NCBI GenBank assembly: GCA_964385625.1
Contig: CAYLPS010000005.1
Span: forward strand, 220-64,219
DNA: 64,000 bases
Source of the DNA: an uncultured Anaerolineaceae bacterium
GTDB lineage: Bacteria > Chloroflexota > Anaerolineae > Anaerolineales > UBA4823
Reading direction: 5' to 3'
Both the position numbers and the translations under genes were made by a program. Shown here piece by piece: positions 3,681-25,018 of this stretch. Position 1 is the first letter of the stretch. Every line of letters begins with the position of its first letter. The notes beneath the pieces were generated by a model, which ran no database searches, was not told the origin of the DNA, and worked only from the letters and a program-made list of their open reading frames with translations.

Positions 3681-3826
3681 ATGTGAAATCTCCGATTGGT
3701 AGTTTATGGCTCAGATATGATTATAGCATTCGCCAATTCATGTAGATTAAAAAACCGGGTTAATTTTTCAAGGAAAAGTCAGATTGCTACAAATCGTAAA
3801 ATGGCTGCCGGGTTCAACATCTACCT

Positions 3827-6106: not shown

Positions 6107-6134
6107 TCGAGATTACCGAAATCCTGACTGGTCA

Positions 6135-7076: not shown

Positions 7077-7363
7077 TTTCCCTGCATTTCAGGATCATTG
7101 TTCATAGATTCTTTTTCAGTAAGCTGTTCTCGAGTGGGCGCAGGCTTATTTATGCTGAGCTGGGGCACCGAGCGCCTGCTTGCCACCAGTAAACCACCAG
7201 TTACCTGGCTTGCCTGCGTGATTCCTATCAGCGAATGCAGGTCTGTCATGCACATCCCTCTCGTCACCAAGCAGAGTATGGCTGGTAAATCAATCCGCCT
7301 ATTTGGTTATTTTATCTTAACCCTGTAATAGGGCTGCCAGCTGTTTTTTAATTCATCCCCGTT

Positions 7364-8491
7364 TCACGGCATGGGCCAGATACCGTTCATGAAATCGGCG
7401 ATCATTCCCCTTAACTTGGCGTTATCCACCTCGTAGATGAACGTGGTGACATTCCGGTTTTCATCATAGGTGACGGCCGCGGTGAACATTTCCTGGGGGA
7501 ACGAGTCAACTTTGATGTTCTCGGCAGGCACTGCCCGGGCGATGCACAACAGGCTGCTGATCTCGCTAGGGCTGAGATTGGTTTGCACCGAGCCGATAAA
7601 TTGTGCCACTAACAAAGGCAATTTGGGCAGCATGGCAGGGGTAAGTAATTTTTCTCGCAGAGCATTGATAATAATCTTCTGGTATTCCATACGCTGGAAG
7701 GTGGACGGGATGCGGTTCCTTGCCAGTAATGAGGTGAACCGCCCATCCAGGTGATGGGAGCCGGCAGACAAGATGAGGGTGGGGTCGGGCGTCCCGTGGC
7801 TCCCATTGAGGTCAACGACGTTGCTGAGCACCACGTCCACACCACCCACCGCATCCACCATGCGCGCGAAGGTTGTCAGGTCCACCGCCAAGTAACGGTC
7901 CACCCGCAAACCATAATTGACATCCAGCGTCTGGGCTAATAAACCCGGACCTTCACCCGGACCATCATAATATCCCATGCCCCGGTTGCCGTATAGATAA
8001 GCCTGGTTCAGCTTGCCGTGCGTAATTCCATGGTGTTCGGAGATACCCGGGATTTCCACCCACAGGTCACGCGGAAAATCGATGACCATGATGCTGGGGA
8101 CGGTGAAATCGATATGTACGGCGTGAATTGAATCGGCCAGTCCATACAAATATCCCGGGCTGCGCTCATCCGAACCGATTGCCAGGATGGTCAACGTAGC
8201 CGGCCCGCCGCACAAAGGGGCAGGCGTGGCCGTTGGTGGGGCAACGGTTCCGGCTGGTTGGCTTGAAATGGCCTGTGGGAGCGGAGTGCCGGATGGTAAA
8301 GTCGCCTGCCCCGAGGGCGAAACTGTTCCCCCGGGAATGGAAGCAACCGGTTGGGTGACTGCGGTATAGCTGGGATAGATCAGTGCCGGCCCCAGGGGTT
8401 TATACCATAATGAAAATATGTACATCCCCGAAGCAGCAATCCCCAGCAAGGCAATGGAGATAACCAGCAGGATTACTTTATATCTGCGCAA
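7364..8491 (-). CDS. LCP (LytR-CpsA-Psr) family glycopolymer ligase, paralogue 1
   Basis: 375 aa with a TTG start. N-terminal TM helix, Pro/Thr-rich linker, then ILAIGSDERSPGYLYGLADSIHAVHIDF...PRDLWVEIPG..HGKLNQAY. Confidence 0.85.
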   Translation of the reverse strand: MRRYKVILLVISIALLGIAASGMYIFSLWYKPLGPALIYPSYTAVTQPVASIPGGTVSPSGQATLPSGTPLPQAISSQPAGTVAPPTATPAPLCGGPATLTILAIGSDERSPGYLYGLADSIHAVHIDFTVPSIMVIDFPRDLWVEIPGISEHHGITHGKLNQAYLYGNRGMGYYDGPGEGPGLLAQTLDVNYGLRVDRYLAVDLTTFARMVDAVGGVDVVLSNVVDLNGSHGTPDPTLILSAGSHHLDGRFTSLLARNRIPSTFQRMEYQKIIINALREKLLTPAMLPKLPLLVAQFIGSVQTNLSPSEISSLLCIARAVPAENIKVDSFPQEMFTAAVTYDENRNVTTFIYEVDNAKLRGMIADFMNGIWPMP

Positions 8492-8571: not shown

Positions 8572-9690
8572 TTAAGGCCAGACCCCGTTCATGAAATCCG
8601 CAAAATAGTGCCTCAGCTGGTTAAAATCCGCTTCCAGAATCCAGGTGGTCACCTTGCGGTAAGGGTCATAAATATGCCCGGCGCCGAAAATATCTTCGGG
8701 AAAGGCCACCATGCTGGTATTATCATCATTCAGCGAGTGACCCAGGCAAGCCAGCTTGGTGATATCGTTGGGACTGAGGTCGGTTTGGACGGTTCCGGCG
8801 AATTGAGAGAATAGCTGGGGGAGCTTGGGGATCATCGTAGGTGTCAACAGCTTGGCCTGGATGGCCTGCAGAACGATATCCTGGTACCTGGCCCGTTGAA
8901 AAATGGTGGGGTTGCGGTTCATGGCCAACTTAAGGGCCATCTGGCCATCCAGGTGATGAACGCCCGGCTCAAATACATAATCCGGATTGGCTCCATCCTG
9001 TTTTTCATTTAAATCAATTTTCGAGGAGACCTTGATATCAATCCCATCGATGGCATCCACCAGCTGCTTAAAAGTCTGCATATTCACCGCCAGGTAGTGG
9101 TCCACCGTCACTCCAAAGTTCACCTGAAGGGTGCGGGCAAGCAAGCCGGGACCTTCTCCAGACCCATCATAGTAACCCATTCCGGGGTTGCCAAAAAAGT
9201 ACGCTTCGTTAAGCTTTCCATGATCGACCCCGTAATGGTCAGAGATGTCGGGAATCTCGACCCATAAATCACGCGGCACGTCCAGAGACATCACTTCAGG
9301 CTTGGTAAAATCGATGCGCACCAGGCGGATTGCATCAGATAACCCGTATGAATACCCATCTTCGCGTGTATCAGAGCCAATTACCAGCAGTGTCATCACC
9401 GGCGGTCCCCCGCAAAGCGTCTGTTGGGCAGTGGGTTGCGGCTTGAATATGGATACGATTTTGTCAAGCAGCGAAGAGGGGGTCGGTGTGGGCTCAGTGA
9501 TCATCGCTGAGCTGTCCTCGGTAGACGCTGCCAATCCAGGATCATCCTGCACCCGGGAAGCAGGTGTAACGTCCTGATCCAAAACCGGCCCAAGAGGTTT
9601 ATACCATAGGGCGACCAGTATAAAAGCAAGGCCGGCCAGAGCGATAAACAGCTCTGCCCCCAGAATTTTGATCAACGTTTTTTTACTCAT
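8572..9690 (-). CDS. LCP (LytR-CpsA-Psr) family glycopolymer ligase, paralogue 2
   Basis: 372 aa. GAGGG upstream of the ATG. Same architecture as paralogue 1 and collinear with it: LLVIGSDTREDGYSYGLSDAIRLVRIDF...PRDLWVEIPD..HGKLNEAY. Confidence 0.85.
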   Translation of the reverse strand: MSKKTLIKILGAELFIALAGLAFILVALWYKPLGPVLDQDVTPASRVQDDPGLAASTEDSSAMITEPTPTPSSLLDKIVSIFKPQPTAQQTLCGGPPVMTLLVIGSDTREDGYSYGLSDAIRLVRIDFTKPEVMSLDVPRDLWVEIPDISDHYGVDHGKLNEAYFFGNPGMGYYDGSGEGPGLLARTLQVNFGVTVDHYLAVNMQTFKQLVDAIDGIDIKVSSKIDLNEKQDGANPDYVFEPGVHHLDGQMALKLAMNRNPTIFQRARYQDIVLQAIQAKLLTPTMIPKLPQLFSQFAGTVQTDLSPNDITKLACLGHSLNDDNTSMVAFPEDIFGAGHIYDPYRKVTTWILEADFNQLRHYFADFMNGVWP

Positions 9691-9891: not shown

Positions 9892-10950
9892 CTAATTAAT
9901 TCCAGTAGCAGCCGGCTTCCAGAATGGCATCTGGTCGTCAGCACTGTTCTGGGTGAGGTTCCGTGGGTCACTGCCATCCGCATTCATGATGTAGATCTCC
10001 CAATTGCCATCCCGGTCAGTTTGGAAGGCAATAAATTTTCCATCGGGCGACCATGCCGGGGACCAATCGTTCGACCGGTCGTTGGATAGGTCCAGCCTGC
10101 CACTGCCGTCGGCATTGATCACATAGATATCGCTGTCGCCATCCACGTCAGCCCGAAAGGCAATCTGAGTGCCATCGGGCGACCAGGACGGGCTGTAGTC
10201 GATCTCGTCGCTGTTGGTCAGGCGGACGATGTTGGAGCCATCGCTGTTCATCAGGTACAGGTTACTCACTCCGGTGGGGTTGTTCCGGTCAGAGACGAAG
10301 GCGATTTGCCTGCCATCGGGCGACCAGGCAGGGGCGAAGTCGTCGGCGGGGTTGGTGGTGATCTGGCGGACATTGCTTCCATCGGCGTTCATGGTGTAAA
10401 TGTCGTTATTGCCGCTCAACCGGGAAGTAAAGGCGATCTGCGTGCCATCAGGAGACCAGCAAGGGAAGCCCTCATCCACATCCGGCCGGTTCGAGAGATC
10501 CACCGGGTTGGTGCCGTCTGCGTTCATCACGCCAATGTAGCTGTGGGTGAGGCCGAATCCGGTGAAGAGCAGCTTTGCCCCATCGGGTGAGAATGGCCCG
10601 GGGAAAGTATTGGAATCATTGTTCGTCAGCTGGGTTATGCTTCTATCTGGCAGGCTCATCAAGTAGATGTTGATATAGTCGCCATTGCGGTCCGAGCCGA
10701 ACACGATTGTCCCATTGGGCAAGGTGGGCAAAGCAGTCTGGGTGGGTGCCTGGGTCTGGGTGGGCACAGCAGTTCCGGTGGGTGGCGTGGTGGCCGTGGG
10801 AGGCTGTTCGGCAGGTTGAGTTGGTGTGTTGGCAGCCGGCCGGGTGGGTTGGGTAGTGGGGCTGGCTGCCGGGCTGGCAGTGGTGCAGGCAGCCAACAAT
10901 AACACCCATATAAGCCAGGGGATGATACGCTTGGACATCGATAACATCAT
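9892..10950 (-). CDS. TolB-like WD40/PD40 beta-propeller lipoprotein
   Basis: 352 aa. Lipobox LLLAAC, a Pro/Thr-rich linker, then at least 5 repeats of the SPDG(T/R/K)xIAF...DIY PD40 signature. Confidence 0.8.
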   Translation of the reverse strand: MMLSMSKRIIPWLIWVLLLAACTTASPAASPTTQPTRPAANTPTQPAEQPPTATTPPTGTAVPTQTQAPTQTALPTLPNGTIVFGSDRNGDYINIYLMSLPDRSITQLTNNDSNTFPGPFSPDGAKLLFTGFGLTHSYIGVMNADGTNPVDLSNRPDVDEGFPCWSPDGTQIAFTSRLSGNNDIYTMNADGSNVRQITTNPADDFAPAWSPDGRQIAFVSDRNNPTGVSNLYLMNSDGSNIVRLTNSDEIDYSPSWSPDGTQIAFRADVDGDSDIYVINADGSGRLDLSNDRSNDWSPAWSPDGKFIAFQTDRDGNWEIYIMNADGSDPRNLTQNSADDQMPFWKPAATGIN

Positions 10951-11151
10951 AGGGACCTCTTAATATAACAATAAAGGATATTCGACCGCAATGATATGGA
11001 CGTTGCGGAAAACCAATTTGTTCCGGGATATTTAATGGACCATGTCACCGGTTTGTTCCCCCCGTGATTTTATGAGATGCTGCTTGGTTTCTGTTCGGTA
11101 AACCTCATGTAATAGCACAACAAAACACGCTGGGTGTGTGCCCATCCTGAT

Positions 11152-12654
11152 TTAGGATGGAGTAATTGCCCAATTAATAAAGTCAACCAGCTCGCCCTTG
11201 AGCTTTGCCAGGGAGGGGATGTGGATGTACATCATGTGCCCAGCCTCGAAGTAGCCCATACGCAGGTTTTCATACAATGATTTATCCAAGCCCAGGTGTT
11301 TAAAGGTGTATCTCGTGGCAAGGTAGGGGGTTGCCAGGTCGAAATAGCCGTTGGCCACGTAAACCTTTAGGTGCGGGTTAATGGTCATGGCCTTGCGTAG
11401 CGTCTCAGCCACATTCACATATTCATTCTCGAACTCGGCATAACTCCACGGATACACACGCTCGGTCAGGATCTCATAAGGCAGGTCTGACTCAAACTTG
11501 AGCTCTCCGCGCACGTAATCGTTGAGCGTGGCAGTATAGGGCCCGGTGATGTTCGTCATGCTGGGATCGAACTCAAAGTGCTCGCCGGCAGAATCGAGGT
11601 CAATCCCCTTGAAGCGGCTATCAAGGCGGCCAACTGTCCGCTTGGCGTGGCGCAACAGCTCCTTGGTGAAGCGGAAAATCTCGATCCGCAGCCTGGTGCT
11701 GTCGATGTAATCTTCCGATAGCCCAGTATATCGCGCCAGCTTGCGGGCAATTAGCAGGCGTTCTTCATCCAGTAGGTCATCCCCCTGCATCAGGGCCTGG
11801 GCATAATCACCCAGTGCAAAGGCTTCCACCTCCGCCAGGGTGGCGTACAGGTCTTTTTCCAGGTCATCGCTCAGCCGGTGATGGTACCAAGCCGTGGCCG
11901 TATAGGTGGGCAGGAATAGGATATAGGGCAGGTCATTTCCGGTGTGGAAATCTGCCGTCTGGAAGTTCAAGATGGAGGAGATCAACATGATCCCGTTCAT
12001 GTACATGCCATGGCGGTCTTGCAGGTATCCTGATAGTCCTGCAGCCCGCGTGGTGCCGTAACTTTCACCGATCAGGAATTTGGGAGAAGTCCAGCGCTGG
12101 TAGCGGGCGGTATACAGGCGGATGAAATCACCCACCGATGCGATATCCTTTTTAAAACCATGGAACTGCTTGGGTTTTTCACCTGGCAATACCCGGCTGA
12201 AACCCGTGCTTACCGGGTCGATGAACACCAGGTCGGTGGCATCAAGCAATGAATAGGCATTATCCACCAGCTTGTAGGGGGGCGGGTAGGCAAAACCCTG
12301 GTCATCGAGCAATACGCGGCGAGGGCCCAGCAAGCCCAGGTGAAGCCAAACTGACGATGACCCCGGGCCGCCATTGAACGAAAAAGTCAGGGGGCGTTTA
12401 TGCTTATCCTCTACGCCATCCAGAGTATAGGCGGTAAAGAATATCGAGGCACGCGGTTTATCACCTTCCGATTCGCCTTCTTTCTTACCCTTTTTTTCCG
12501 TCTCCTCCTTCAATACAATCGTCCCACAAGTGACGGTGTAATTGAGCTCCCTGCCATCCATGACGATACTGTGCCTGGTTTCCACCAGCTCGTCTTTGGG
12601 CAATGGAGGTGTCACCTCTTCGACTTTTTTGACCTCTTTGTCCTGCTCTGCCAT
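11152..12654 (-). CDS. peptidase S10 (serine carboxypeptidase) family protein
   Basis: 500 aa. NGGPGSSSVWLHLG and nucleophile motif GESYGT. Size fits bacterial S10 homologues. Confidence 0.8.
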   Translation of the reverse strand: MAEQDKEVKKVEEVTPPLPKDELVETRHSIVMDGRELNYTVTCGTIVLKEETEKKGKKEGESEGDKPRASIFFTAYTLDGVEDKHKRPLTFSFNGGPGSSSVWLHLGLLGPRRVLLDDQGFAYPPPYKLVDNAYSLLDATDLVFIDPVSTGFSRVLPGEKPKQFHGFKKDIASVGDFIRLYTARYQRWTSPKFLIGESYGTTRAAGLSGYLQDRHGMYMNGIMLISSILNFQTADFHTGNDLPYILFLPTYTATAWYHHRLSDDLEKDLYATLAEVEAFALGDYAQALMQGDDLLDEERLLIARKLARYTGLSEDYIDSTRLRIEIFRFTKELLRHAKRTVGRLDSRFKGIDLDSAGEHFEFDPSMTNITGPYTATLNDYVRGELKFESDLPYEILTERVYPWSYAEFENEYVNVAETLRKAMTINPHLKVYVANGYFDLATPYLATRYTFKHLGLDKSLYENLRMGYFEAGHMMYIHIPSLAKLKGELVDFINWAITPS

Positions 12655-12871
12655 GGTTTTACTCTCCCGGTTATCAATGAAATATCGAATGTGTGTTTAC
12701 ATCTCAGCAGGGGTTAATCCCGCAACTTTCGTCTCCAATTTTTGTCGCTCGGTGAGGATCGAAATCATCAGCTCAGATTTGTTCTTATACCGCATAATTC
12801 CCTCCACTTTGATTTTACCACCCACAATGCTGTGGAGTAAAAGGCATTAATCTACAAATAATGTAGCAGAC

Positions 12872-12900
12872 TTATCAGATGGTAGGTCTTCTGCTAAAAT
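12872..12900 (+). promoter_or_regulatory. candidate sigma70-type promoter for the GT2 operon
   Basis: TTATCA (12872-12877), 17-nt spacer, TAAAAT (12895-12900). Confidence 0.35.
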
Positions 12901-12926
12901 GCATTACTCATAAATAAAGGTGATCG

Positions 12927-13022
12927 ATGGGGAGTGAGCTCATTACGAATGATTATCCTGTCAGCAGAATGCCATACGAAGGTAACCTCACCAGGCTGCA
13001 AGGGCAGCTGAGCATCATCTAA
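12927..13022 (+). CDS. candidate 31-codon upstream ORF (MGSELITNDYPVSRMPYEGNLTRLQGQLSII)
   Basis: AAGGTG sits 4 nt before the ATG at 12927. The stop is at 13020-13022, 9 nt before the GT2 ATG. Too short for the ORF track and no homology is recognisable. Confidence 0.25.
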   Translation: MGSELITNDYPVSRMPYEGNLTRLQGQLSII

Positions 13023-13031
13023 CAAGGTCCC

Positions 13032-14597
13032 ATGTCAATCGTACAAATTTTATTCCTGGTACTATCGCTTATATTAACCTTCTCGTTCTTTCTTTACGGA
13101 TTCAACCAATATTTTTTATTGAGTGTTATGCACCGTTATCACCACCCAGAGCTATTACCACGATCGAAATTAAAACGACCATATGTGTCTATCCAACTGC
13201 CGATATATAATGAAAGATATGTGGTTCGGCGCCTGGTTGAGACCTGCGTTCGCATGGTGGATCAATATGGCAAGCAGCATGCTGAAATTTTGATCCTGGA
13301 CGATTCGACAGATGACACCAGCCGGCAGGTGGATGACATCGTAAGCGGACTGCAGCAGAAGGATTATCACATCCATGTGCAGCGCAGGGCAAACCGCGAG
13401 GGATACAAAGCCGGGGCATTACAGGTGGCATTAGATCACACCCGGGCGGAGTTCGTCGCTATTTTTGATGCTGATTACACACCTGCGCCGGATTTTCTGC
13501 TGCGTACCATACCCTTTTTTTCCCAGGATGAGAAACTGGCAATCATCCAGAGCAGGTGGACGCACTTGAATCGCGATTACAACCTGGTAACCAGTGCCAT
13601 CGCCATTGGTATTGATGTTCACTTCTTGATCGAGCAAACCGCCCGTTACGCCACAAGCTGTCTTCAAAATTTCAATGGTAGCGGCGGCGTGCTGCGGAAA
13701 AGTGCGCTGGTGGAAGCAGGTGGCTGGCAAGCGGATACATTGGCAGAAGACCTGGATGCCAGCTATCGAATGCAGCTAAAAGGTTATAAGATCCTGTACC
13801 TCAAAGATCTTCCCAGCCCCGGGGAAGTGCCACCCACCGTGCCGAGCTTTAAAAAGCAACAGGCGCGTTGGGCTAATGGATCATTACGGACCGCCCGAAA
13901 ACTATTGCCAACCATCTTATCTAATCATCAGCTCAAGCTATACCAGCGTGTGGAAGCCTATATCCACCTGACAGGGTATGTCTTGCATCCAATGATGTAC
14001 ATCTCATTTCTACTGGCAGCTCTGGGTACCATCCTTGGGTTGGATACCTACCTGAATCATACCCAGATATTGACGCCATTTGGAGGCATATTACTTGCCT
14101 CCCCCACGAAGTCAGATGTCCTTCTGCATAACCTGTCGTGGGGTGCGCTGGATACCATGATCCTATTAAGCCTGGTTGCGGCCTGGGTATCTCCGATAGT
14201 TAGCTTGAGATTACAAAAGTTATCCATCCGTAAAAACTTATCCGGATTAATGTACCTTTTTCTGCTTGGCAGCGGCATCAGCATAAGCAACACGATTGAG
14301 GCTCTAAAAGCGTTATTCACCAACAAGCAATGGGAGTTTAAGCGGACTCCAAAATACGCCACGGTCAACAACGATGAGGCACTGCGTTATCACACTTACC
14401 AGGTTCCGTTGGATGGTGTTTTCCTTTTGGAAGTGATTTCTGTACTGCTGGGCCTGGCGGCAGTAAGCCTCGCCTTGGCGCACCATTTATTCTTTATATT
14501 GCTGATATTGGCCCCATATACAGTTGCTTATATATTTATCGCCTATCTAACCTTTACACAAAGCCGGCCCCAGGTTCAGGCGACTGATGGCGACTGA
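13032..14597 (+). CDS. processive family-2 glycosyltransferase (cellulose/chitin/hyaluronan-synthase-like, membrane-integrated)
   Basis: 521 aa. Shows the D, D, D, QxxRW pattern: ILILDDSTDDT, FDADY, LAEDLD, QQARWANG. TM helices at the N-terminus and several at the C-terminus. Confidence 0.85.
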   Translation: MSIVQILFLVLSLILTFSFFLYGFNQYFLLSVMHRYHHPELLPRSKLKRPYVSIQLPIYNERYVVRRLVETCVRMVDQYGKQHAEILILDDSTDDTSRQVDDIVSGLQQKDYHIHVQRRANREGYKAGALQVALDHTRAEFVAIFDADYTPAPDFLLRTIPFFSQDEKLAIIQSRWTHLNRDYNLVTSAIAIGIDVHFLIEQTARYATSCLQNFNGSGGVLRKSALVEAGGWQADTLAEDLDASYRMQLKGYKILYLKDLPSPGEVPPTVPSFKKQQARWANGSLRTARKLLPTILSNHQLKLYQRVEAYIHLTGYVLHPMMYISFLLAALGTILGLDTYLNHTQILTPFGGILLASPTKSDVLLHNLSWGALDTMILLSLVAAWVSPIVSLRLQKLSIRKNLSGLMYLFLLGSGISISNTIEALKALFTNKQWEFKRTPKYATVNNDEALRYHTYQVPLDGVFLLEVISVLLGLAAVSLALAHHLFFILLILAPYTVAYIFIAYLTFTQSRPQVQATDGD

Positions 14598-15891
14598 GAA
14601 TCGTGCGAGCCGAATTATAGAAGCCAGGAAGCAGGGACAAACGAAGGACCTGGCTTTCCTTCTACTAAGCATCGTGTTCCAGCTGGTGCTGGGATATTTC
14701 TTCGGTCACGCCTATGATATGAAAATATTCATGGCCACTGGCTACATGGTGGCCAGCGGGCGCGATCCCTATTCCCTGCCCGACCTCAGCACAGTATTCC
14801 ACAACCCGGCATTCCAGGGGTTGAACAGCATTGGCTATCCCCCGCCATGGCCGCTGGTATTGGGGCTGGTTTACCTGCTGAGTTATGCATGGACGCATAA
14901 TTTCCTCGCCTACAACCTGGCCATTAAGCTGCCGATTATCGCCGCCAATATCTGCCTGGCGTACCTGGTGAGGGATATCCTTAAAGACCAGGGTGCAGGG
15001 CCGGAGCTCGTACATAAAGCCTGGCTGTTCCTGCTGCTCAACCCTTTCCTGTTTTATTTCACCACTGCCTGGGGGCAATTCGATTCGCTGGTGGTGGTAT
15101 TAACCATGCTGGCTTTATACTTATTGTATAAACACCGCTTCGTTGCATCGTCGATATTATTGGCATTAGCCATTGCGCTCAAGCCCACCTCAGTGCCTGT
15201 AGTGCTTGCGGCAGTGCTATACCTGTGGGGGGCACCCAGCAAAAGGATGGTGGGTTATTGCGCGAGATTTGTTTTCAGCCTGGTGGTATTCATCGTGCTT
15301 CCTTTTTTGATATTTGGCTGGAGCGCCAGCCCGATATATCATGGCTGGAATGCGCAATTCACGGTGAGTGGTGGTATGTCATTAGCCATGCTTTATGTGC
15401 TTTTTTCCGACACCAGCCTGCTGCCGGGTAATTGGTGGCTTTTGGGAGTGGCATGGCTACCGGCAGTGTTTATTGCAGCAGCATTTCTGCAGCGAGGCGA
15501 ACACGGCTTGCTAAACCTGTTCCAGCAGAGCCTGGTATTAGTGCTGGTGTTCTACCTGACGCGCACCTGGCTTTCTGAACAGAACATCAGCCTGGTCTTA
15601 CCTCTGGTGCTAATATTGGTGTACATGGATAAGCTACCCAGGCTGATCCTGCATGCAGTGTGGATCCTACCGCTGATTTTCACGATCTTCAACACCTCGC
15701 CAGCCCAGCTTTTATTCCCGATACTTCCCCGACTGATGGCCCAATTGCTCCAGCTTGCCCAAACCTACCGCCTCGAGCGCTTGTGGGCGAGCATGGCAGT
15801 GATCATTCCTTGGCAGGTTGCCGGCTGGTGGATTGTGATAGACTATTACCGCTCGAAATCCGCGCATAAAGGAAAACCGGTTCTGGCATGA
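14587..15891 (+). CDS. polytopic GT-C-fold glycosyltransferase-like membrane protein (DUF2029/PIG-V-like)
   Basis: 434 aa with about 10 or more hydrophobic helices. First-loop motif GHAYDMKIFMATG and ALKP in a later loop resemble GT-C enzymes. The start overlaps the GT2 stop by 11 nt. Confidence 0.6.
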   Translation: MATENRASRIIEARKQGQTKDLAFLLLSIVFQLVLGYFFGHAYDMKIFMATGYMVASGRDPYSLPDLSTVFHNPAFQGLNSIGYPPPWPLVLGLVYLLSYAWTHNFLAYNLAIKLPIIAANICLAYLVRDILKDQGAGPELVHKAWLFLLLNPFLFYFTTAWGQFDSLVVVLTMLALYLLYKHRFVASSILLALAIALKPTSVPVVLAAVLYLWGAPSKRMVGYCARFVFSLVVFIVLPFLIFGWSASPIYHGWNAQFTVSGGMSLAMLYVLFSDTSLLPGNWWLLGVAWLPAVFIAAAFLQRGEHGLLNLFQQSLVLVLVFYLTRTWLSEQNISLVLPLVLILVYMDKLPRLILHAVWILPLIFTIFNTSPAQLLFPILPRLMAQLLQLAQTYRLERLWASMAVIIPWQVAGWWIVIDYYRSKSAHKGKPVLA

Positions 15892-16724
15892 TAATCGATC
15901 TTCCGCTGAATCATTGCATGCAATTGCAGATATGCTCAGGCAGCAGTGGGAATCCAACCTTCCCAACTGCAATGATCCAAAGAGGCTTGTTGCTATCCTG
16001 TAATGGCCGCGATCTTTCAGAAGAAGCGGTCGGTTATGGTGTGCCGATACTCAAACGCGGATTACAGGCTATCTTTCCTGGCGAGGTAGAATTATCCCAT
16101 TCAAGAGATGCACCTCATCAAGGCATTACAGCCCGCTATAAGCTCAACCTGGAAGAAAAAATATCCAATCATGGCACGGGGACCATCGATAAGCGATGGG
16201 TGTATGCTTGTAAATATTTTCTCGCTGCGCTGATTCGCAACTGGCCTATCTCACGAAGGGTGCTTTCCGCCGCTTCCAGCTGGTTACGCACCAGATTTGG
16301 CTGGACAACCACCTATGAGCCGTTGGATTTTTCTATTTTCATCACAATGACGTATACTATATATCGGGATATGGGCAAGGTCTTCATCGAGCTGATCAAA
16401 TTAGAATGTCCCCTACCAGATATCAGTGAAGTGATCGTGATGAATGAGCAAGGAGCGCAGACCTTCAACTTATACCAGGAAGCCGGAGGGAACATCCAAT
16501 CTGGCAACCAAATTGGCTGCTGGGATTTAGTGACGGGAGACCATGCTGCATTTCTTAGCAGCACGCAGCACATTTCCTTTTGCCTGCCACAGGTGAAGGC
16601 AGCCAGGCTTTACCGCGGCAGGGAGATCGTCGAATCAAGGCTGGCTTGGGCAGGGTTTGGATACACCTTCCCGCCAAACCTTACTGATTTCTCGTATTCG
16701 ATAACACTAAGCAAATTACCATGA
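15888..16724 (+). CDS. hypothetical protein with no recognisable domain
   Basis: 278 aa. ATGA stop/start overlaps at both ends (15888-15891 and 16721-16724) tie it to the operon. Confidence 0.6.
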   Translation: MIIDLPLNHCMQLQICSGSSGNPTFPTAMIQRGLLLSCNGRDLSEEAVGYGVPILKRGLQAIFPGEVELSHSRDAPHQGITARYKLNLEEKISNHGTGTIDKRWVYACKYFLAALIRNWPISRRVLSAASSWLRTRFGWTTTYEPLDFSIFITMTYTIYRDMGKVFIELIKLECPLPDISEVIVMNEQGAQTFNLYQEAGGNIQSGNQIGCWDLVTGDHAAFLSSTQHISFCLPQVKAARLYRGREIVESRLAWAGFGYTFPPNLTDFSYSITLSKLP

Positions 16725-18103
16725 GTAAAGTGCTGTTGATCTACCCATATTTCAAGCCTGCCAATGACCGTTCAGTGTTTCGTTTTCCACCCCTGGGGGT
16801 GGCCTACCTGGCTTCCAGCTTGATCAAGGCCGGGCACGAGGTGCAGATTTTGGATTGCACTTTCCTTGAAAAAGATGAAGCCTTGAAGCAAGCCCTGGGA
16901 TTCCAGGCGCAAGTCGTGGGGATATATTGCATGGTCACCATGCTGGACGATTGCCTATGGTTTGCCAGGCGGTTGCGGTCGGGCACAAGATTATTACTGG
17001 CTGGAGGCCCATTGCCCACCTGCGATCCACAAGCCTTTGTGCAGGACTTCGATGTGGTGGTACGCGGCGAAGGCGAAGCCACGGTAGTTGAACTGCTACA
17101 GGCATTTGCAGATAAAAAGGGCTATGGCACCGTCGCAGGGATATGCATGCTGGCAGAAGCATCGGGCCAAGGGCAAAGCAGTAAAGAAATGATTTCCACC
17201 CCAAACCGCAAGTTTAATACCCGGCTTGACAGGCTGCCTTTCCCTGCCCGCCACCTGCTTCCCAACCAGAGCTATATCGAATATGCCAAGCAGAAGTATG
17301 GTTATTCGATCACTACAGTAATGAGCACGCGCGGTTGCCCCTATCACTGCGAGTTTTGCAGCAATGTGATCTTTGGCGGCACCTATCGTGAACGCACAGC
17401 CCGGAATGTGGTTCACGAGGTGGAACAGGCACTGGCCCTGGGTTATGAGCGAATTTCATTCGCTGATGATGTATTCACCCTGAACCAAAAGCGCGTGTTG
17501 GAATTTTGCGAGGCAGTAACCAGGCGTAGCCTGCATTTTAATTGGGAATGCCTGGCGCGGGTCGATTCACTCGGCGATGCCACTTACGTGCGAATGTATA
17601 ATGCCAGCTGCCGGCGGGTATATTTTGGCATCGAATCGGGGGATGATTCAATCCTCATGCTGATGAACAAAAAGATCACCACAGAAGAGGCGCGGCATGC
17701 TGTGATCGCCGCTCATCAAGCCGGCCTTGAAGTGGGGGCTTTTTTCATCCTATTTTATCCAGGCGATACCAACCAGACGGTACTCAACACCCTGCACTTC
17801 GCTAACACCCTGCCCCTGGATTACCTGGGCCTCAGCATGCCCTACCCGCTTCCTGGCACGCCGCTATATGACAGGGTGAAAGATAAAATATACCGGGATT
17901 GGCGCCCGGGTGAAAGCGTGTTTGGCAGCCACATGTTGATTTATAAGTCAGAGTTTTCTGAAACCAAAATGTGGTTTGGAATGATCAAGGGGCGCGGGCA
18001 ATTTGAGATTGCCCGCAGGTTACAGCGCTGGGGGAAAATTGGCCAGCTGGTCTTGCGGTTTACCGAAAAGGTCACAGACTGGATATTGCTGCATTTGCGC
18101 TGA
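16721..18103 (+). CDS. B12-binding-domain radical SAM protein
   Basis: 460 aa. N-terminal Rossmann-like B12 domain (LLIYPYF...PPLGVAYLAS...ILDC) followed by the CxxxCxxC cluster RGCPYHCEFCS. Confidence 0.85.
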   Translation: MSKVLLIYPYFKPANDRSVFRFPPLGVAYLASSLIKAGHEVQILDCTFLEKDEALKQALGFQAQVVGIYCMVTMLDDCLWFARRLRSGTRLLLAGGPLPTCDPQAFVQDFDVVVRGEGEATVVELLQAFADKKGYGTVAGICMLAEASGQGQSSKEMISTPNRKFNTRLDRLPFPARHLLPNQSYIEYAKQKYGYSITTVMSTRGCPYHCEFCSNVIFGGTYRERTARNVVHEVEQALALGYERISFADDVFTLNQKRVLEFCEAVTRRSLHFNWECLARVDSLGDATYVRMYNASCRRVYFGIESGDDSILMLMNKKITTEEARHAVIAAHQAGLEVGAFFILFYPGDTNQTVLNTLHFANTLPLDYLGLSMPYPLPGTPLYDRVKDKIYRDWRPGESVFGSHMLIYKSEFSETKMWFGMIKGRGQFEIARRLQRWGKIGQLVLRFTEKVTDWILLHLR

Positions 18104-18120
18104 CCAATCAGGAAACTGCT

Positions 18121-19425
18121 TCATGCTGTTGAATTCTTGCGTAGCTTGAATGCACGCATGGTCTGGTGGATGCGCCGCCTCAGCCATTGCTGGTCGAATT
18201 CAGAGGCATAGACGAAACTCACATCATTCTCATGCGTCCAATCACGGCTGGGGTCAATGCCACTCACGCGATCGAAAAGGGCAGAGCCAGGCAAGGGAAA
18301 AGGCACATTGAAGGATATATCATTAAGAGGCAAGCTGAGAGCCAGGCTGAAGGTTTTCTCGATATCCGCCAGCGTCTCGTTTGGATAACCCACCAGGAAG
18401 AATGCCGCCACTTCGATGCCTGCCTGGCGAAAATATTCCACTGCTTGCATGCCTTCCTCCACGGTCGCTTTCTTGTTCATCAAGCGCAAGGTGGCGTTGC
18501 TTCCTGATTCCAGCCCGAGGTAAACCCGCTGGCACCCGGCTGCCCTCATCAGGCGGGCGATGTCGAGGGTGATGCCGGATACACGCGATAGGCAGGTCCA
18601 TGTCACTCCAAAACCATGGATATGCTGGCAAAACTGGCGCAACAGGTCCAGGTCGATGGTGAAATTGTCATCAGCGATCCACAGCTGGTCGTAACCCAGG
18701 GCTTTGACCTGGCGGATTTCCTCAAAAACCACGAACAGGTTGCGCTTGCGATACATGCTGCCGAAAACCGGGCGTGAGCAAAAATCACAATTATAGGGGC
18801 AACCCAGGGTGATCATGATCGAAGTGGTGCGGGTGCCGTTCTTTTCCATCCAGGCTTTTTGGTAAGCCGCATGCTCGAAATTACTCCGATCGGGGATGGG
18901 GAATTTACCGATTTCCTGCTGGCTGTAGTGAATGAGCGGATTATCCACGACCACGTCCAGGTTGTGGGAGAATAAACCGGGATATTCTCGCAGGTCGAGC
19001 TTATGCAAGGCTTTTCGGCTGGCCATGTAACCAAAATAATCGCTGCAAAAATCCGGGAAGCTTATATCGGCTTCGCCACGGAAGACCAGGTCGAAGGCGC
19101 TGATGTAGCGCTCCGGGTAAAGGGTGGGCATTGGCCCACCAGCAACGAGCAATGCTCCCGGCAGGCGCTCGCGCACCAATTCGGCGAAGCGGAAGGTACT
19201 CTGGTTCAGCAGGATCATTGATGAAAGCCCAACAATATCCGGCTGGTAAGCTAGCAGGCCCTTGGCAATCCGTGAAAAAGTCTGGAAGGTGCAATCGAAG
19301 ATGCGCGCTTCGATTTGCCTCTGTTTCAGCTGGGCTAATAGTGCAGCAGCTCCAAGCGGAGGAAATAACATCTCGGTGGGCGCACGCGTGCGAAAATATG
19401 GGAATACCAGAGCAACCCTGGGCAT
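18121..19425 (-). CDS. B12-binding-domain radical SAM protein (paralogue of 16721-18103)
   Basis: 434 aa. VALVFPYF...PPLGAAALLA...IFDC, then LGCPYNCDFCS. Collinear similarity with the convergent neighbour along the whole length. Confidence 0.85.
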   Translation of the reverse strand: MPRVALVFPYFRTRAPTEMLFPPLGAAALLAQLKQRQIEARIFDCTFQTFSRIAKGLLAYQPDIVGLSSMILLNQSTFRFAELVRERLPGALLVAGGPMPTLYPERYISAFDLVFRGEADISFPDFCSDYFGYMASRKALHKLDLREYPGLFSHNLDVVVDNPLIHYSQQEIGKFPIPDRSNFEHAAYQKAWMEKNGTRTTSIMITLGCPYNCDFCSRPVFGSMYRKRNLFVVFEEIRQVKALGYDQLWIADDNFTIDLDLLRQFCQHIHGFGVTWTCLSRVSGITLDIARLMRAAGCQRVYLGLESGSNATLRLMNKKATVEEGMQAVEYFRQAGIEVAAFFLVGYPNETLADIEKTFSLALSLPLNDISFNVPFPLPGSALFDRVSGIDPSRDWTHENDVSFVYASEFDQQWLRRRIHQTMRAFKLRKNSTA

Positions 19426-19751
19426 GTGCAGACGATCCTTATTTTCCCAAACCTGTCAGCTTGAACCTGCGATCATTGCATAAAATTCACCCTTTGGTAA
19501 TAAGCCAACTTAAATCTCAAAAAAATTCCCAATTACGTTAAAAAAGTATAGCGTAATCATCTTCAGCGAATACCAAAATATGATTAGACGGGGATTAGTA
19601 TTTAATTCTCAGCGCGGAACGGCTGGGTTTTTCAAATTACCAGGAGGCTAATGCAACAGTAATTGTCCTGACCGATAAGAACGCATCTTCCCGTCTGCTC
19701 CCAGTCAGCGGAAGGTGCAGCTTACTGCTCTGTGATTGTTATTCATCCCAA

Positions 19752-21421: not shown

Positions 21422-21586
21422 CATTAATAATTGTCCATCGCTAGAAGCGGGCTTAGTGACATGGCAATCTGCACTTTATTAATAGATCAGGGTGCGAAAT
21501 AGTTGTTGGTTTGCGTTGCAAGAGCAGATTGCTTCAGGTTGGTAAACTCATCCAACCCACGCGATGACAAAAAGATTGGAGGAAAT

Positions 21587-24500
21587 ATGCCATTTCAAGA
21601 AGTGTCTAATAAAGTTGATTTCCAGGCGCAGGAGCGTGAGATTCTCAAGTTTTGGGAAGACAGCCATGCCTTCGAGAAAATGGTTGCCATACACAAGGGA
21701 CAGCCTCGCTGGTCGTTCATCGATGGGCCTATTACAGCCAATAACCCCATGGGCGTGCACCATGGCTGGGGACGCACTTACAAGGACCTGATGCTGCGCT
21801 TCCGCACCATGCAGGGGCACGAGCTGCGCTACCAGAACGGCTTTGATTGCCAGGGGCTGTGGGTGGAAGTGAACGTGGAGCGCGACCTGGGCTTCAAGAC
21901 CAAGCTGGACATTGAAGATTTCGGGCTGGCGAAGTTCGTACTCAAGTGCAAGGAGCGCGTGCTGCGCTATGCCGCCGTGCAGACCGAGCAATCCATCCGC
22001 CTGGGATACTGGATGGATTGGAATGACCCCACCTTGCTTAACGACCTGGCGGATAAGTTAATGGAAGACCCTGCCCAGGTAATCACCGTCCCCGGGCAAA
22101 AAGGGGCGTATACCGACACGGTGGAGCAGGTGGTGGCTCACCTGGGCCTGCCGGAGCTGGGTGGGAGTTACTTCACTTTCTCCAACGAGAACAACTACAT
22201 GATCTGGGCCTTCCTGAAGAAGTGCTGGCAGAACGGCTGGCTGTACAAGGGGGATGACGTGATGCCCTGGTGCCCGCGCTGCGCCACGGGGCTCAGCCAG
22301 CACGAGATCGCCACCGAGGGCTACCAGGAGCTGACCCACAACTCAGTAACCCTGCGCTTCCCGCTTTTGGGACGCGAAAATGAATCCCTGCTGGTGTGGA
22401 CAACCACACCCTGGACGCTCACCAGCAATGTGGCCGCTGCGGTGGGCCCTGAGCTCACCTATGCCAGAGTACGCCAGGGTGACCAGGTTCTGTACCTCTC
22501 CAGGGGTACGCTGGATATGCTCAAAGGGCCATACGAATTGCTGGGAGAGCTAAAAGGTGCCGAGATGGAGGGCTGGCGCTATGCCGGCCCGTTCGATGAC
22601 CTGCCACCGGCTCAACGACCGGGCGGCTACACCTCGCTCACCGTGCTGATCCGGGACGTGAAGCAAAGCGCGGTAGAGGCTCACAGGGTGATCCTGTGGG
22701 ATGCGGTGGGCGAAGAGGAGGGCACCGGCATCGTGCACATCGCCCCCGGCGCTGGCGCGGAAGATTTCCAGCTGGGCAAAGAGAACCACCTGCCGATCAT
22801 CGCCCCCTTGAACGAGGAGGGTGAATTCCTGGACGGTTTCGGCTGGTTGAGCGGCAGGCACGTTTTGGAAGTGGCTGAGCTAATCTTCGATGACCTGCGC
22901 CGTAAAGGTTTGCTGTACCGCGTGGAACCCTACACCCACCGTTACCCGGTATGCTGGCGTTGTGGCACCGAGCTGGTGTTCCGCCTGGTGGATGAGTGGT
23001 TCATCAGCATGGGAAAGACCTACGACAAGCCGCGTGAAGAGCTGAGCTCCGAGGAAAAAGCCCGCTCGCTGCGCTACCAGATCATGGATGTGGTGGATCA
23101 GATCAAGTGGATCCCTGATTTCGGCTATGCGCGTGAGATGGATTGGCTTCGCAACATGCACGATTGGATGATCAGCAAAAAGCGCTATTGGGGGTTAGCG
23201 CTGCCCATCTGGGAATGCGAGGCCTGCGGTAATTTCGAGGTCATCGGTGGCGACGATGAGCTACAGCAGCGCGCCACCGCCGGCCTGGATGTGCTGGACG
23301 GACATACCCCCCACCGGCCGTATATCGATGCAGTTACCATCGCCTGCTCGAAGTGCGGGGGAGACATGCAGCGCGTGCGCGATGTGGGCAACCCCTGGCT
23401 GGATGCCGGTATCGTACCCTTCAGCACGCTCAGCTATCGCAAGGATCCCGATTATTGGCGCACCTGGTACCCGGCCAGGTGGATCAGCGAATCATTCCCC
23501 GGGCAGTTTCGTAACTGGTTTTATAGCCTGCTGGCTATGGCTACGGTGATGGATGGCACTCCACCTTTCCTGGAGAACTTCGGTTACGCCACTTTGCTCG
23601 GGCCTGATGGACGCCCCATGCACAAGAGCTGGGGAAATATGATCGAGTTCAACGAGGCCGCCGAAAAGATGGGGGTGGACGTGATGCGCTGGCTGTTCTG
23701 CACGCACAAGCCCGAGAGTGACCTGATATTCGGCTATGAATCTGATGCATTGCACACTTTTAGGAGTGGGAACGATGTGCGTAAGGAATTCATCATGCCC
23801 TTATGGAATGCCTACAGCTTCTTCACCAATTATGCCCGCCTGGACGGCTGGCTGCCGAATGGTGACTTCGATGCAAGCCTTCCCGAAGGTGATACCCCAC
23901 GCAGCGATAACCTGCTGGATCGCTGGATCCTGGCACGCCTCAACCAGGTGGTGGCGCAAGTAAGCGCTTATCTCGAGGCCTCCGACCCGATGAATGCCAG
24001 CCTGACCTGCGAGGCATTCCTGGACGACCTGACCAACTGGTACATCCGGCGCTCGCGGCGGCGCTACTGGAAATCGGAGCACGACGAAGATAAGAACACC
24101 GCCTATGCCACCCTGTACCACGTGCTGGTCAAGTTCGCCAGGGTCCTTGCTCCTTTTATCCCCTTCACCAGCGAGGTGATTTACCAAAACCTGGTGCGCA
24201 ATATTCGCCCGGAAGCCTACGATAGCATCCACCATACGGCATGGCCCGAGGTGGACCAGAGCAGCGTGGATGAAGCCTTACAGGAGCAGATGGGCCTGGC
24301 CAGGAAGATCGCTTCCCTGGGGCACAGCGCCAGGAAAAGCACCGGCATCAAGGTGAAGCAGCCGCTCAGCAAGGTGATGGTGTATGCCGGTCAAGCGCTG
24401 CTGCGCGATGAGCTGGTGGAGATCGTGAAAGATGAGCTGAATGTCAAGGTCTTTGAGTTCGTCGAACAGCAAGGCGCGTTGGTAAATTACAGGGTGCTGC

Positions 24501-25018
24501 CAGATAACAAGATATTGGGTCCCAGGTTCGGGGCACGCTTCCCGCAAGTGCGTGCCGCCCTGGCACAGTTAGACCCTGCCAGGGTGGTTGCCAGCGTGAG
24601 TGCCGGGTCGCCAGTCACATTGCAGCTGGACGGTGAAACGGTCGAGCTGGAATCCACCAGCCTCCTGGTGAGCAGCGAGCCGCGCCCGGGTTTGGCTGTG
24701 GCAGGTGATAAATATGCCACCGTGGGCATCGACACCTCCCTCACCCCCCAGCTAAAGCTGGAAGGCCTGGCGCGCGAAGTGGTGCGCCTCGTCCAGGATA
24801 TGCGCAAGAAAGCCGGCTTCAACATCGAGGATCGCATCACCACCTGCTACCAGGCAGAAGGTGTGTTGGTGCAGGTAATTACAACCTGGGGCGATTACAT
24901 TCAATCTGAGACGCTTACCACCCGCCTGCTGGATGCCCCACCCATCGAGGGGTCTTACGTGGAACAATTTGAGCTGGAGGGTGAGAATCTCTTACTGGCA
25001 ATAAAGCAGAATAATTGA
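21587..25018 (+). CDS. ileS: isoleucine--tRNA ligase (long, type-2-like form)
   Basis: The ORF track starts at 21503, inside the leader. GGAGGA lies upstream of the ATG at 21587, giving MPFQEVSNKVDFQAQEREILKFWED. HIGH-type motif PMGVHHGWGRT, editing-domain insertion, KMSKS-type MHKSWGN. About 1143 aa. Confidence 0.93.
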   Translation: MPFQEVSNKVDFQAQEREILKFWEDSHAFEKMVAIHKGQPRWSFIDGPITANNPMGVHHGWGRTYKDLMLRFRTMQGHELRYQNGFDCQGLWVEVNVERDLGFKTKLDIEDFGLAKFVLKCKERVLRYAAVQTEQSIRLGYWMDWNDPTLLNDLADKLMEDPAQVITVPGQKGAYTDTVEQVVAHLGLPELGGSYFTFSNENNYMIWAFLKKCWQNGWLYKGDDVMPWCPRCATGLSQHEIATEGYQELTHNSVTLRFPLLGRENESLLVWTTTPWTLTSNVAAAVGPELTYARVRQGDQVLYLSRGTLDMLKGPYELLGELKGAEMEGWRYAGPFDDLPPAQRPGGYTSLTVLIRDVKQSAVEAHRVILWDAVGEEEGTGIVHIAPGAGAEDFQLGKENHLPIIAPLNEEGEFLDGFGWLSGRHVLEVAELIFDDLRRKGLLYRVEPYTHRYPVCWRCGTELVFRLVDEWFISMGKTYDKPREELSSEEKARSLRYQIMDVVDQIKWIPDFGYAREMDWLRNMHDWMISKKRYWGLALPIWECEACGNFEVIGGDDELQQRATAGLDVLDGHTPHRPYIDAVTIACSKCGGDMQRVRDVGNPWLDAGIVPFSTLSYRKDPDYWRTWYPARWISESFPGQFRNWFYSLLAMATVMDGTPPFLENFGYATLLGPDGRPMHKSWGNMIEFNEAAEKMGVDVMRWLFCTHKPESDLIFGYESDALHTFRSGNDVRKEFIMPLWNAYSFFTNYARLDGWLPNGDFDASLPEGDTPRSDNLLDRWILARLNQVVAQVSAYLEASDPMNASLTCEAFLDDLTNWYIRRSRRRYWKSEHDEDKNTAYATLYHVLVKFARVLAPFIPFTSEVIYQNLVRNIRPEAYDSIHHTAWPEVDQSSVDEALQEQMGLARKIASLGHSARKSTGIKVKQPLSKVMVYAGQALLRDELVEIVKDELNVKVFEFVEQQGALVNYRVLPDNKILGPRFGARFPQVRAALAQLDPARVVASVSAGSPVTLQLDGETVELESTSLLVSSEPRPGLAVAGDKYATVGIDTSLTPQLKLEGLAREVVRLVQDMRKKAGFNIEDRITTCYQAEGVLVQVITTWGDYIQSETLTTRLLDAPPIEGSYVEQFELEGENLLLAIKQNN

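Follow-up and report, generated by a model that had tools for sequence, protein, structure and literature searches.

A conserved cassette of a GT-C glycosyltransferase, an unannotated protein family and two B12-domain radical SAM enzymes, probably involved in the modification of envelope sugars

Introduction

In the pathways of undecaprenyl-phosphate-L-Ara4N (ArnC/ArnD/ArnE/F/ArnT) and decaprenyl-phosphate-arabinose (DprE1/DprE2 plus Emb/Aft), a glycosyltransferase of the GT-C type is paired with cytoplasmic enzymes that modify a sugar carried by polyprenyl phosphate. Here, we describe a gene cassette of related organization, located at positions 13,032–19,425 of a 64,000-nucleotide stretch of DNA (contig CAYLPS010000005.1 of assembly GCA_964385625.1, positions 220 to 64,219; the window, from here on) from an uncultured Anaerolineaceae bacterium. 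The cassette encodes a family 2 glycosyltransferase (GT2, gene 1), a GT-C protein (gene 2), a protein that we call ORP (gene 3), and two radical SAM (rSAM) proteins with a B12 domain (rSAM-1 and rSAM-2, genes 4 and 5). As in the Arn and DprE pathways, GT-C is accompanied by cytoplasmic enzymes and, by analogy, the sugar could be modified while on polyprenyl phosphate; unlike in those pathways, the putative remodelers are B12-domain rSAMs and a protein modeled as a beta-sandwich, in the place of a deformylase or of a flavin/NAD epimerase pair. The cassette also differs from the three-component systems formed by an enzyme of the GtrB/ArnC/dolichol-monophosphate mannose synthase (DPMS) type, a flippase, and a GT-C transferase, as its only small membrane protein is DUF420, which is absent from the window.

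Other precedents concern the radical enzymes. HpnJ is presumed to act by a radical mechanism on a hexose attached to a lipid, and the HpnI/HpnK/HpnJ system resembles the cassette in pairing a GT2 with a B12-domain rSAM, whereas GT-C, ORP, and the second rSAM have no counterpart in it. OxsB, also a B12-rSAM, needs its partner OxsA to hold the substrate; judging from gene order, the cassette likewise has a B12-domain rSAM steadily paired with a small non-rSAM protein, as ORP is with rSAM-1, although OxsA is an HD-domain protein and ORP a predicted beta-sandwich. Regarding the transferase itself, the best fold matches of GT-C are PimE, Gpi14/PIG-M, and Gpi18/PIG-V (TM-scores of 0.55–0.65), with which it shares an Asp after the first transmembrane (TM) segment, but identity in these structural alignments is 14–16%, and a genomic context of rSAM and ORP genes is not known for PimE or the GPI mannosyltransferases. 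To our knowledge, outside model organisms, donors and acceptors are known for only a minority of the GT-C enzymes of bacteria.

More than 220,000 proteins belong to the superfamily of B12-domain radical SAM proteins, which has a known function for few of them and includes enzymes that C-methylate sugars, such as GenK and GenD1 (PMC12931638). Full-text literature searches combining radical SAM with DUF420, DUF2029, GT87, GT-C/polyprenyl phosphate, or Anaerolineae returned no description of the cassette. The curated subfamily models of the rSAMs were not reached either, and no Pfam or NCBIfam model covers ORP. The statement of a previous sequence-only reading of the window, according to which no characterized pathway had this composition, holds for the models and the literature searched. 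The superfamilies of the parts are known and there are precedents for the logic proposed below; what is new is the ORP family, with 485 clusters and no annotation, and the joining of B12-domain rSAMs and GT-C enzymes in a compact unit across several phyla.

The cassette probably makes a modified envelope sugar or glycoconjugate. The reading that we prefer, and put forward tentatively, is that ORP and the rSAMs would remodel a polyprenyl-phosphate hexose at the cytoplasmic face of the membrane, that GT-C would transfer it on the outside, and that in Anaerolineae the GT2 would supply a beta-glycan.

Gene Organization and Conservation of the Cassette

According to the open reading frame (ORF) listing, the genes for GT2 (13,032–14,597, + strand, 521 aa), GT-C (14,587–15,891, + strand, 434 aa), ORP (15,888–16,724, + strand, 278 aa), and rSAM-1 (16,721–18,103, + strand, 460 aa) are chained by overlaps of 11 nt, 4 nt (ATGA), and 4 nt (ATGA), and rSAM-2 (18,121–19,425, − strand, 434 aa) is convergent with rSAM-1, with the stop codons of both genes 17 nt apart. 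These coordinates and overlaps match exactly those given by the sequence-only reading, whose domain calls for GT2, GT-C, and both rSAMs also turned out to be correct by Pfam, motifs, and Foldseek. The four-gene operon is preceded by 377 bp of non-coding sequence (12,655–13,031, + strand) that separate the S10 peptidase gene from GT2. A further 326 bp (19,426–19,751, − strand) lie upstream of rSAM-2, before a CPBP gene, and rSAM-2 is a transcription unit of its own, apart from the operon.

For the analysis of conservation, one genome per GTDB species was scanned with an ORP alignment, yielding 103 loci of which 80 were kept, and the components were counted by tblastn mapping of the window proteins in the 61 species-level loci that had at least 4.5 kb on both sides. 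ORP and rSAM-1 were found adjacent in 61/61 loci, always with ORP followed by rSAM-1; rSAM-2 was present in convergent orientation in 59/61, GT-C in 57/61, and DUF420 in 52/61. The BcsA-like GT2 was detected in 31/61 loci, corresponding to 30/35 from Chloroflexota, 1/1 from Spirochaetota, and 0/23 from Actinomycetota. The loci come from Anaerolineae and other Chloroflexota and from Thermoleophilia and other Actinomycetota, along with single genomes of Bacteroidota, Chitinivibrionales, and Spirochaetota and one metagenome-assembled genome (MAG) of Methanotrichaceae; the Chitinivibrionales locus had too little flanking sequence and was left out of the 61-locus count. An identical locus was found on 17 metagenome contigs, and the full cassette is carried by a cultured isolate, Longilinea arvoryzae KOME-1, which makes experiments possible. 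The hosts are anaerobes of soil, peat, and sediment.

Some 60 further genomes at the species level thus share the core arrangement, which is found in at least five bacterial phyla and goes beyond what chance would give. When the neighboring ORFs were clustered over the 80 loci, no other family turned out to be widely conserved. The flanks are lineage-specific, with genes for an FAD oxidoreductase, an ABC ATPase, MFS, MBL-fold, and aldo-keto reductase proteins. Because of the stop/start overlaps and of a synteny maintained over 61 loci despite unrelated flanks, the cassette is one conserved, horizontally spread functional unit made up of GT-C, ORP, rSAM-1, and rSAM-2, usually with DUF420. The sequence-only reading had taken the five genes of the window as such a unit and had named a lack of synteny as the observation that would speak against it; synteny was strong, and the proposal stands for GT-C, ORP, and both rSAMs, while GT2 is to be regarded as an accessory and DUF420 has to be added as a usual member.

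As a side observation, in the locus from the archaeal Methanotrichaceae MAG (9929–13,427 of its contig), a distance of about 1.3 kb separates ORP from an orthologue of rSAM-1, and no GT-C, rSAM-2, or DUF420 was detectable at the locus. An ORF nearby (5940–7223) resembles a TnpB/IS605 OrfB-type transposase, as judged by eye alone. This locus could be the remnant of a horizontal transfer or a binning error.

ORP, a Protein Family without Annotation

No match to Pfam or NCBIfam was found for ORP, also when 28 members of the family were searched with the threshold relaxed to E <= 10, and neither its sequence nor the family profile matched any PDB entry. However, the family is large, with 522 matches in a 90%-clustered database, nearly all of them of 276–278 aa, and a set of 1.84 billion representatives contains 485 clusters of it at 50% identity. 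The alignment has 48 invariant columns, including E45, E46, E90, E181, E187, C211, W212, R245, and E246 as well as the motif RLAW(S/A)GFGY. ORP is, therefore, a new conserved protein family without Pfam or NCBIfam coverage. Three more distant representatives were looked up for context, but their contigs were too short to add much.

The AlphaFold2 (AF2) model of ORP was confident (pLDDT 88.5, pTM 0.87), and Foldseek placed it among galactose-mutarotase-like beta-supersandwich folds, with E values down to 2.6e-5. The matches comprised accessory domains of GH129 and GH38 enzymes, GalM (4bze), YeaD (2htb) and HI1317 (1jov), both similar to hexose-6-phosphate mutarotases, and the P1 domain of YidC, with a probability of 0.99–1.0 and TM-scores of 0.37–0.52 for the mutarotase and glycoside hydrolase matches. 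Hence, the description of gene 3 as lacking any recognizable domain is right at the level of sequence, but not for the structure, as the protein has a confident mutarotase-like beta-sandwich model and belongs to a large conserved family. An assignment as aldose 1-epimerase (mutarotase) by sequence was considered and rejected in view of the lack of Pfam or PDB matches and of an invariant catalytic His; ORP is, therefore, not a canonical mutarotase.

As neither TM segments nor a signal sequence are present in ORP, and its fold is that of mutarotases and glycoside hydrolase domains, the model suggests a soluble cytoplasmic protein with a sugar-binding-type fold, for which sugar binding is predicted; the positively charged termini of GT-C, as read from its sequence, are also in line with a cytoplasmic location of the sugar binder. 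Its adjacency to rSAM-1 in all 61 loci, and the presence of a B12-domain rSAM 3' of ORP even in a distant branch of the family (L097), point to rSAM-1 as its partner.

Two Radical SAM Enzymes, Probably Non-Redundant

Both rSAM proteins contain the radical SAM and B12-binding domains, as shown by Pfam scores of 81.3 (PF04055) and 66.4 bits (PF02310) for rSAM-1 and of 87.3 and 53.7 bits, respectively, for rSAM-2, with the CxxxCxxC cluster motifs CPYHCEFC at position 206 of rSAM-1 and CPYNCDFC at position 209 of rSAM-2. They are 34% identical to each other, so the earlier call of two paralogous B12-domain enzymes is borne out. Across the loci, orthologues of rSAM-1 are 51–73% identical and those of rSAM-2 44–77%, and since these values are above the identity between the paralogues, the duplication predates the spread of the cassette. 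The two enzymes would be non-redundant, as suggested by the retention of both copies across phyla. A third, distant B12-rSAM was found in 15 loci, counted among the 23 from Actinomycetota, and it reached no NCBIfam subfamily.

The search against NCBIfam gave partial matches with ApyD, PhpK, BchE, HpnJ, AprD4, and MgmA for both enzymes, scoring 100–147 bits against cut-offs of 360–750. The best ones of rSAM-1 (132–147 bits against 481–750) were ApyD (146.7/750), BchE (137.2/481), and HpnJ (132.5/577.6), with PhpK also among them, and the best one of rSAM-2 was BchE (118.7 bits), again below the cut-off. Assignments to the HpnJ, BchE, PhpK, ApyD, AprD4, MgmA, HpnR, or ladderane type were rejected on this basis. 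With no subfamily cut-off reached, the chemistry of these enzymes is therefore not readable from sequence. Among PDB entries, the best matches of the rSAMs were AprD4 and MgmA/QCMT, with values for rSAM-1 of 5.5e-25 and 1e-16 (9ccb), and OxsB was a weak match of both. C-methylation is the commonest reaction of the B12-rSAM class.

The likeness to HpnI/HpnJ that the sequence-only reading had pointed out without claiming homology is useful as an analogy, but does not extend to the family models, as the score for HpnI was 22.9 bits, with the cut-off at 310, and HpnJ remained below its own. In addition, no HpnK-type deacetylase or hopanoid genes were found when the ORFs of the window were scanned.

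The top position of ApyD, an enzyme of ribosomally synthesized and post-translationally modified peptides (RiPPs), among the partial matches of rSAM-1 would agree with an action of the rSAMs on a RiPP or a protein, followed by protein glycosylation by GT-C. We consider this very improbable, because the score is far under the cut-off, the gene junctions overlap or span less than 100 nt and leave no room for a precursor-peptide gene, and neither a protease nor a transporter nor a RiPP recognition element could be identified.

The GT-C Protein and Its Putative Lipid-Linked Donor

GT-C matches the Pfam family GT87 with 33.2 bits (cut-off 25), has a precomputed hit on PF26314 (MptA_B_family), and carries the JGI annotation "Gpi18-like mannosyltransferase", whereas its sequence matched no PDB chain. 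In the Foldseek search with the AF2 model (pTM 0.79), the eight best matches were all membrane proteins of the GT-C fold, six of them glycosyltransferases, namely Gpi14, PIGU (three GPI-transamidase entries), PimE, ALG6, ALG9, and ArnT, with nothing else below an E of 0.1. The TM-scores were 0.62/0.65 with yeast GPI mannosyltransferase I in complex with Dol-P-Man (Gpi14, 9wno) and 0.55/0.61 with PimE (9dm5). The protein has around 10 hydrophobic segments, and right after the first one (22–40), an alignment of 28 sequences shows no variation at G40, H41, Y43, or D44; the invariant D44 is a candidate for a catalytic-type Asp, predicted to lie in the first extracytoplasmic loop. As modeled, GT-C is a polytopic glycosyltransferase of the GT87/PimE/GPI-mannosyltransferase type, in agreement with the GT-C-like polytopic protein that had been proposed for gene 2.

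Most of these fold relatives use polyprenyl- or dolichyl-phosphate sugar donors, as is the case of Gpi14 (Dol-P-Man), PimE, ALG6, ALG9, and ArnT. A further hint comes from two gene fusions that involve ORP. In one of them (P0245, 751 aa), GT-C is fused to ORP, and the contig has the order [GT-C::ORP], rSAM-1, and rSAM-2. In the other (P0256, 539 aa), a GT2 of a different type is fused to ORP. Residues 2–213 of the latter match the dolichol-monophosphate mannose synthase of Pyrococcus furiosus with E = 8e-51, and the next PDB matches are ArnC, in second place, and GtrB-like enzymes; ArnC here and ArnT among the fold matches of GT-C are points in common with the Arn pathway. The order in the contig of P0256 (L091) is GT-C, [DPMS::ORP], and a bacterial ERG2/sigma-1-receptor-like protein encoded at 3404–4063 (+ strand; PF04622, 166.7 bits). 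Independently of the contigs with fusions, a 3.2-Mb contig from Spirochaetota (L085) has a separate DPMS-type gene between GT-C and ORP, 50% identical to that of P0256; this locus is without rSAM-2 and DUF420. Scanning of the window ORFs revealed no DPMS-type GT2.

Because the fold relatives of GT-C use such donors, and because of the fusion and adjacency of DPMS-type genes, a polyprenyl-phosphate sugar is suggested as the donor of GT-C; the same gene associations point to this lipid-linked sugar, over a polymer made by GT2, as the working substrate.

The same data bear on what we see as the main rival to this reading, in which a glycosyltransferase would first attach a hexose to a membrane lipid. 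ORP and the rSAMs would remodel this head group at the cytoplasmic side, for example through C-methylation or through contraction of the ring to give a cyclitol, in the manner of HpnI/HpnK/HpnJ or of calditol synthase, and GT-C would then extend the flipped glycolipid with mannose from ordinary polyprenyl-phosphate-mannose, as PimE and the GPI mannosyltransferases do. Gpi14 and PimE, the closest structural relatives of GT-C, use glycolipid acceptors, HpnJ is among the top partial matches of rSAM-1, an ERG2/sigma-1-like lipid-binding protein is encoded 3' of the L091 cassette, and a DPMS-type GT2 would merely supply the unmodified donor. However, the fusion partner of ORP is the donor synthase, the scores for HpnI and HpnJ fall well short of their cut-offs, half of the cassettes have no GT2, and the GT2 of the window resembles a processive synthase with a gating-loop motif and not a lipid glycosyltransferase. 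We take this alternative to be unlikely, though worth keeping in mind.

It could also be thought that the rSAMs methylate or cross-link an isoprenoid or alkyl tail, either in the polyprenyl carrier or in a membrane lipid, with ORP as an adaptor to membrane proteins. Hopanoids are methylated by B12-rSAMs (HpnP/HpnR), and a role in the synthesis of ladderane lipids has also been attributed to this class, both types being among the weak matches; the ERG2-like neighbor in L091 and the provenance of the hosts, anaerobes of soil, peat, and sediment, would fit such a role. On the contrary, the fold of ORP is of the carbohydrate-binding type, GT-C keeps its catalytic-type Asp, the DPMS link involves a sugar donor, and genes of lipid synthesis are not among the conserved neighbors of the cassette, all of which make tail modification improbable.

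A Processive-Type GT2 as a Lineage-Specific Accessory

Gene 1 matches the Pfam families Glyco_trans_2_3, Glycos_transf_2, and Glyco_tranf_2_3, and has the D,D,D,QxxRW signature of processive synthases noticed from the sequence alone, in the form of DDSTD90, DAD146, (A)ED239, and QQARW276. Residues 8–375 align with Rhodobacter BcsA (PDB; E = 4e-27), each of these motifs being matched to its counterpart in BcsA, and FKRTPK436 resembles the gating-loop motif of BcsA (FxVTxK). Hydrophobic segments are located at the N terminus (3–21) and in the C-terminal third (317–335, 368–386, and 463–481). GT2 is like BcsA, PgaC, NodC, and hyaluronan synthase in having D, DxD, (T)ED, and QxxRW, and its FxxTxK motif and the TM helices predicted at the N terminus and in the C-terminal part may correspond to the gating loop and the channel of such synthases; unlike the BcsA and PgaC systems, it has no PilZ domain and is not accompanied by BcsB, PgaD, or PgaB partners. 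The NCBIfam equivalogs were all below their cut-offs (CelA 123.2/699, PRK11498 104.5/992, PgaC 88.7/422, and NodC 20.4/550). Judging from these motifs, GT2 is a BcsA/PgaC-like membrane synthase of the processive beta-glycan type and a lineage-specific accessory of the cassette.

Shorter starts of GT2, giving proteins of 447 or 489 aa, have been called on other contigs of the same organism, but the 521-aa start is the correct one, as the N-terminal hydrophobic helix encoded from 13,032 is kept in relatives. In the Spirochaetota locus, two ORFs that overlap, with 259 and 260 aa, stand in the place of a single GT2 gene (6368–7926, + strand), either because of a genuine split or through a frameshift of long-read sequencing.

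The product suggested by the sequence-only reading was a methylated or rearranged polysaccharide or glycolipid, secreted or linked to the wall. In one form of this idea, the rSAMs would modify the polymer of GT2, giving for instance a C-methylated beta-glycan, or its nucleotide-sugar precursor, with GT-C and ORP as accessories. The translational coupling of GT2, GT-C, ORP, and rSAM-1 in the window and in 30/35 Chloroflexota loci speaks in its favor, as does the existence of B12-rSAMs that C-methylate sugars, the GenK and GenD1 mentioned above (PMC12931638). In contrast, the 23/23 loci from Actinomycetota and those from Bacteroidota and Chitinivibrionales are without GT2 and keep the remaining genes, so the substrate of the rSAMs is not generally the polymer of GT2; furthermore, a polymer leaving through the channel of its synthase would be out of reach of cytoplasmic rSAMs. 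With half of the cassettes lacking GT2, the idea loses weight, and we retain it as a rather improbable rival. Lipid-tail and RiPP chemistry are less likely still.

A Model for the Function of the Cassette

The preferred reading, remodeling of a polyprenyl-phosphate hexose before its transfer by GT-C, can be laid out as a series of steps. A polyprenyl-phosphate hexose, probably mannose, would be made on the cytoplasmic face by a synthase that most lineages would have as a housekeeping enzyme and a few would encode within the cassette. ORP would hold the sugar head group and present it to rSAM-1 and then to rSAM-2, which would perform radical chemistry on the sugar, with C-methylation as the first candidate and ring contraction, dehydration, or epimerization as alternatives. 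The modified lipid-linked sugar would then be flipped, DUF420 being a candidate for the flippase or for a redox partner, and GT-C would move it onto an acceptor at the outer face. In Anaerolineae, the co-translated GT2 may provide this acceptor in the form of the beta-glycan that it would extrude.

Several observations weigh against this scheme. The DPMS-type GT2 appears in two lineages only (L085 and L091) and is absent from the window and from most cassettes, while each fusion lies on one short metagenome contig and could be an artifact of assembly or a frameshift. In L091, moreover, it is the ERG2/sigma-1-receptor-like gene that follows the ORP fusion, in the place usually taken by rSAM-1. 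Regarding ORP, its structural matches are at the level of fold only (TM-scores of 0.4–0.5), and none of its 48 invariant columns is a His. Cobalamin binding by the rSAMs is only predicted, and AprD4, their best PDB match, does not bind cobalamin in spite of its related domain (PMC12931638). Finally, there is no homologue of GtrA- or ArnE/F-type flippases in the cassette, and GT2 could instead be the enzyme that makes the substrate.

A more specific form of the proposal is that ORP and the two B12-domain rSAMs constitute a new system for radical chemistry on a polyprenyl-phosphate-linked hexose, whose product, a branched-chain sugar generated by C-methylation or a carbocycle generated by contraction, would be a new lipid-linked donor, installed by a dedicated GT-C on the envelope of anaerobic Chloroflexota, Actinomycetota, and members of other phyla; we regard it as possible but doubtful. 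If true, it would represent the first GT-C donor remodeled by radical SAM enzymes, with ORP as a new class of substrate-presenting subunit. The preferred model, if right, would reveal a new route to unusual envelope sugars in poorly cultured and abundant anaerobes (Anaerolineae, Thermoleophilia), and it would provide testable functions for four uncharacterized families.

DUF420, a Usual Component Absent from the Window

DUF420 is a protein of about 155 aa with four TM segments (PF04238, 33.8 bits), encoded at different positions depending on the lineage. Its gene is just upstream of GT2 in the 13 closest relatives (L011–L023, 6683–7147), upstream of rSAM-2 and co-oriented with it (minus strand) in 17/35 scored Chloroflexota loci, including Longilinea, and upstream of GT-C in Actinomycetota. 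In the 64-kb window, tblastn with two queries gave nothing at E < 10, and the position upstream of GT2 is also without DUF420 in a sister clade (L092/L093, 65% ORP identity). In the organism of the window, the gene has been either lost or moved elsewhere in the genome. The conserved residues H48, H94, M67, and M129 would suit a metal or heme site.

Genomic Surroundings and Other Features of the Window

Upstream of the cassette, the window encodes tandem LCP (LytR-CpsA-Psr) paralogues (7364–8491 and 8572–9690, both − strand), a PD40/TolB-like beta-propeller protein (9892–10,950), and an S10 serine carboxypeptidase-like protein (11,152–12,654). The cassette has the LCP, S10, PD40, and CPBP genes as neighbors in the 13 closest loci and in the sister lineage L092/L093, and in no other lineage. 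This is local synteny, and the suggestion that the LCP ligases could act on the product of the cassette has been abandoned, as has a classification of the region as an LCP-dependent wall glycopolymer locus, because the LCP genes are not conserved with the cassette outside close relatives.

Regarding expression signals, a promoter-like site was located upstream of the operon (12,872–12,900), no more than expected by chance; the frequency of such sites was not above that of shuffled sequence. Terminator-like sites were in excess, with 14 compared to 7.8 ± 2.5 expected, none of them informative for the operon. Neither the operon nor rSAM-2 is preceded by a riboswitch for cobalamin or SAM according to Rfam. 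Its sole match in the window was a T-box leader (RF00230; 21,128–21,404, + strand; 90.9 bits, E = 2.3e-19, slightly below the gathering score of 93) upstream of the IleRS gene (21,503–25,018), which is an ordinary arrangement.

The rest of the window has a housekeeping character, with genes for glutamine synthetase, IleRS, a purine-nucleoside-phosphorylase-family protein, FtsK, PfkB, a CDP-alcohol phosphatidyltransferase, Lgt, ABC transporters, TyrRS, and subunits of complex I. Among these housekeeping genes is one for a 246-aa radical SAM protein without a B12 domain (46,881–47,621, − strand), which is probably unrelated to the cassette. In addition, both an ABC-2 permease and a SpoIIM domain are present in an ORF of 488 aa (44,233–45,699, + strand) that adjoins an ABC ATPase gene (43,299–44,276), and a protein of 893 aa (27,366–30,047, + strand) is a SEDS-bPBP fusion, in which an FtsW/RodA/SpoVE domain is joined to the PBP dimerization and transpeptidase domains.

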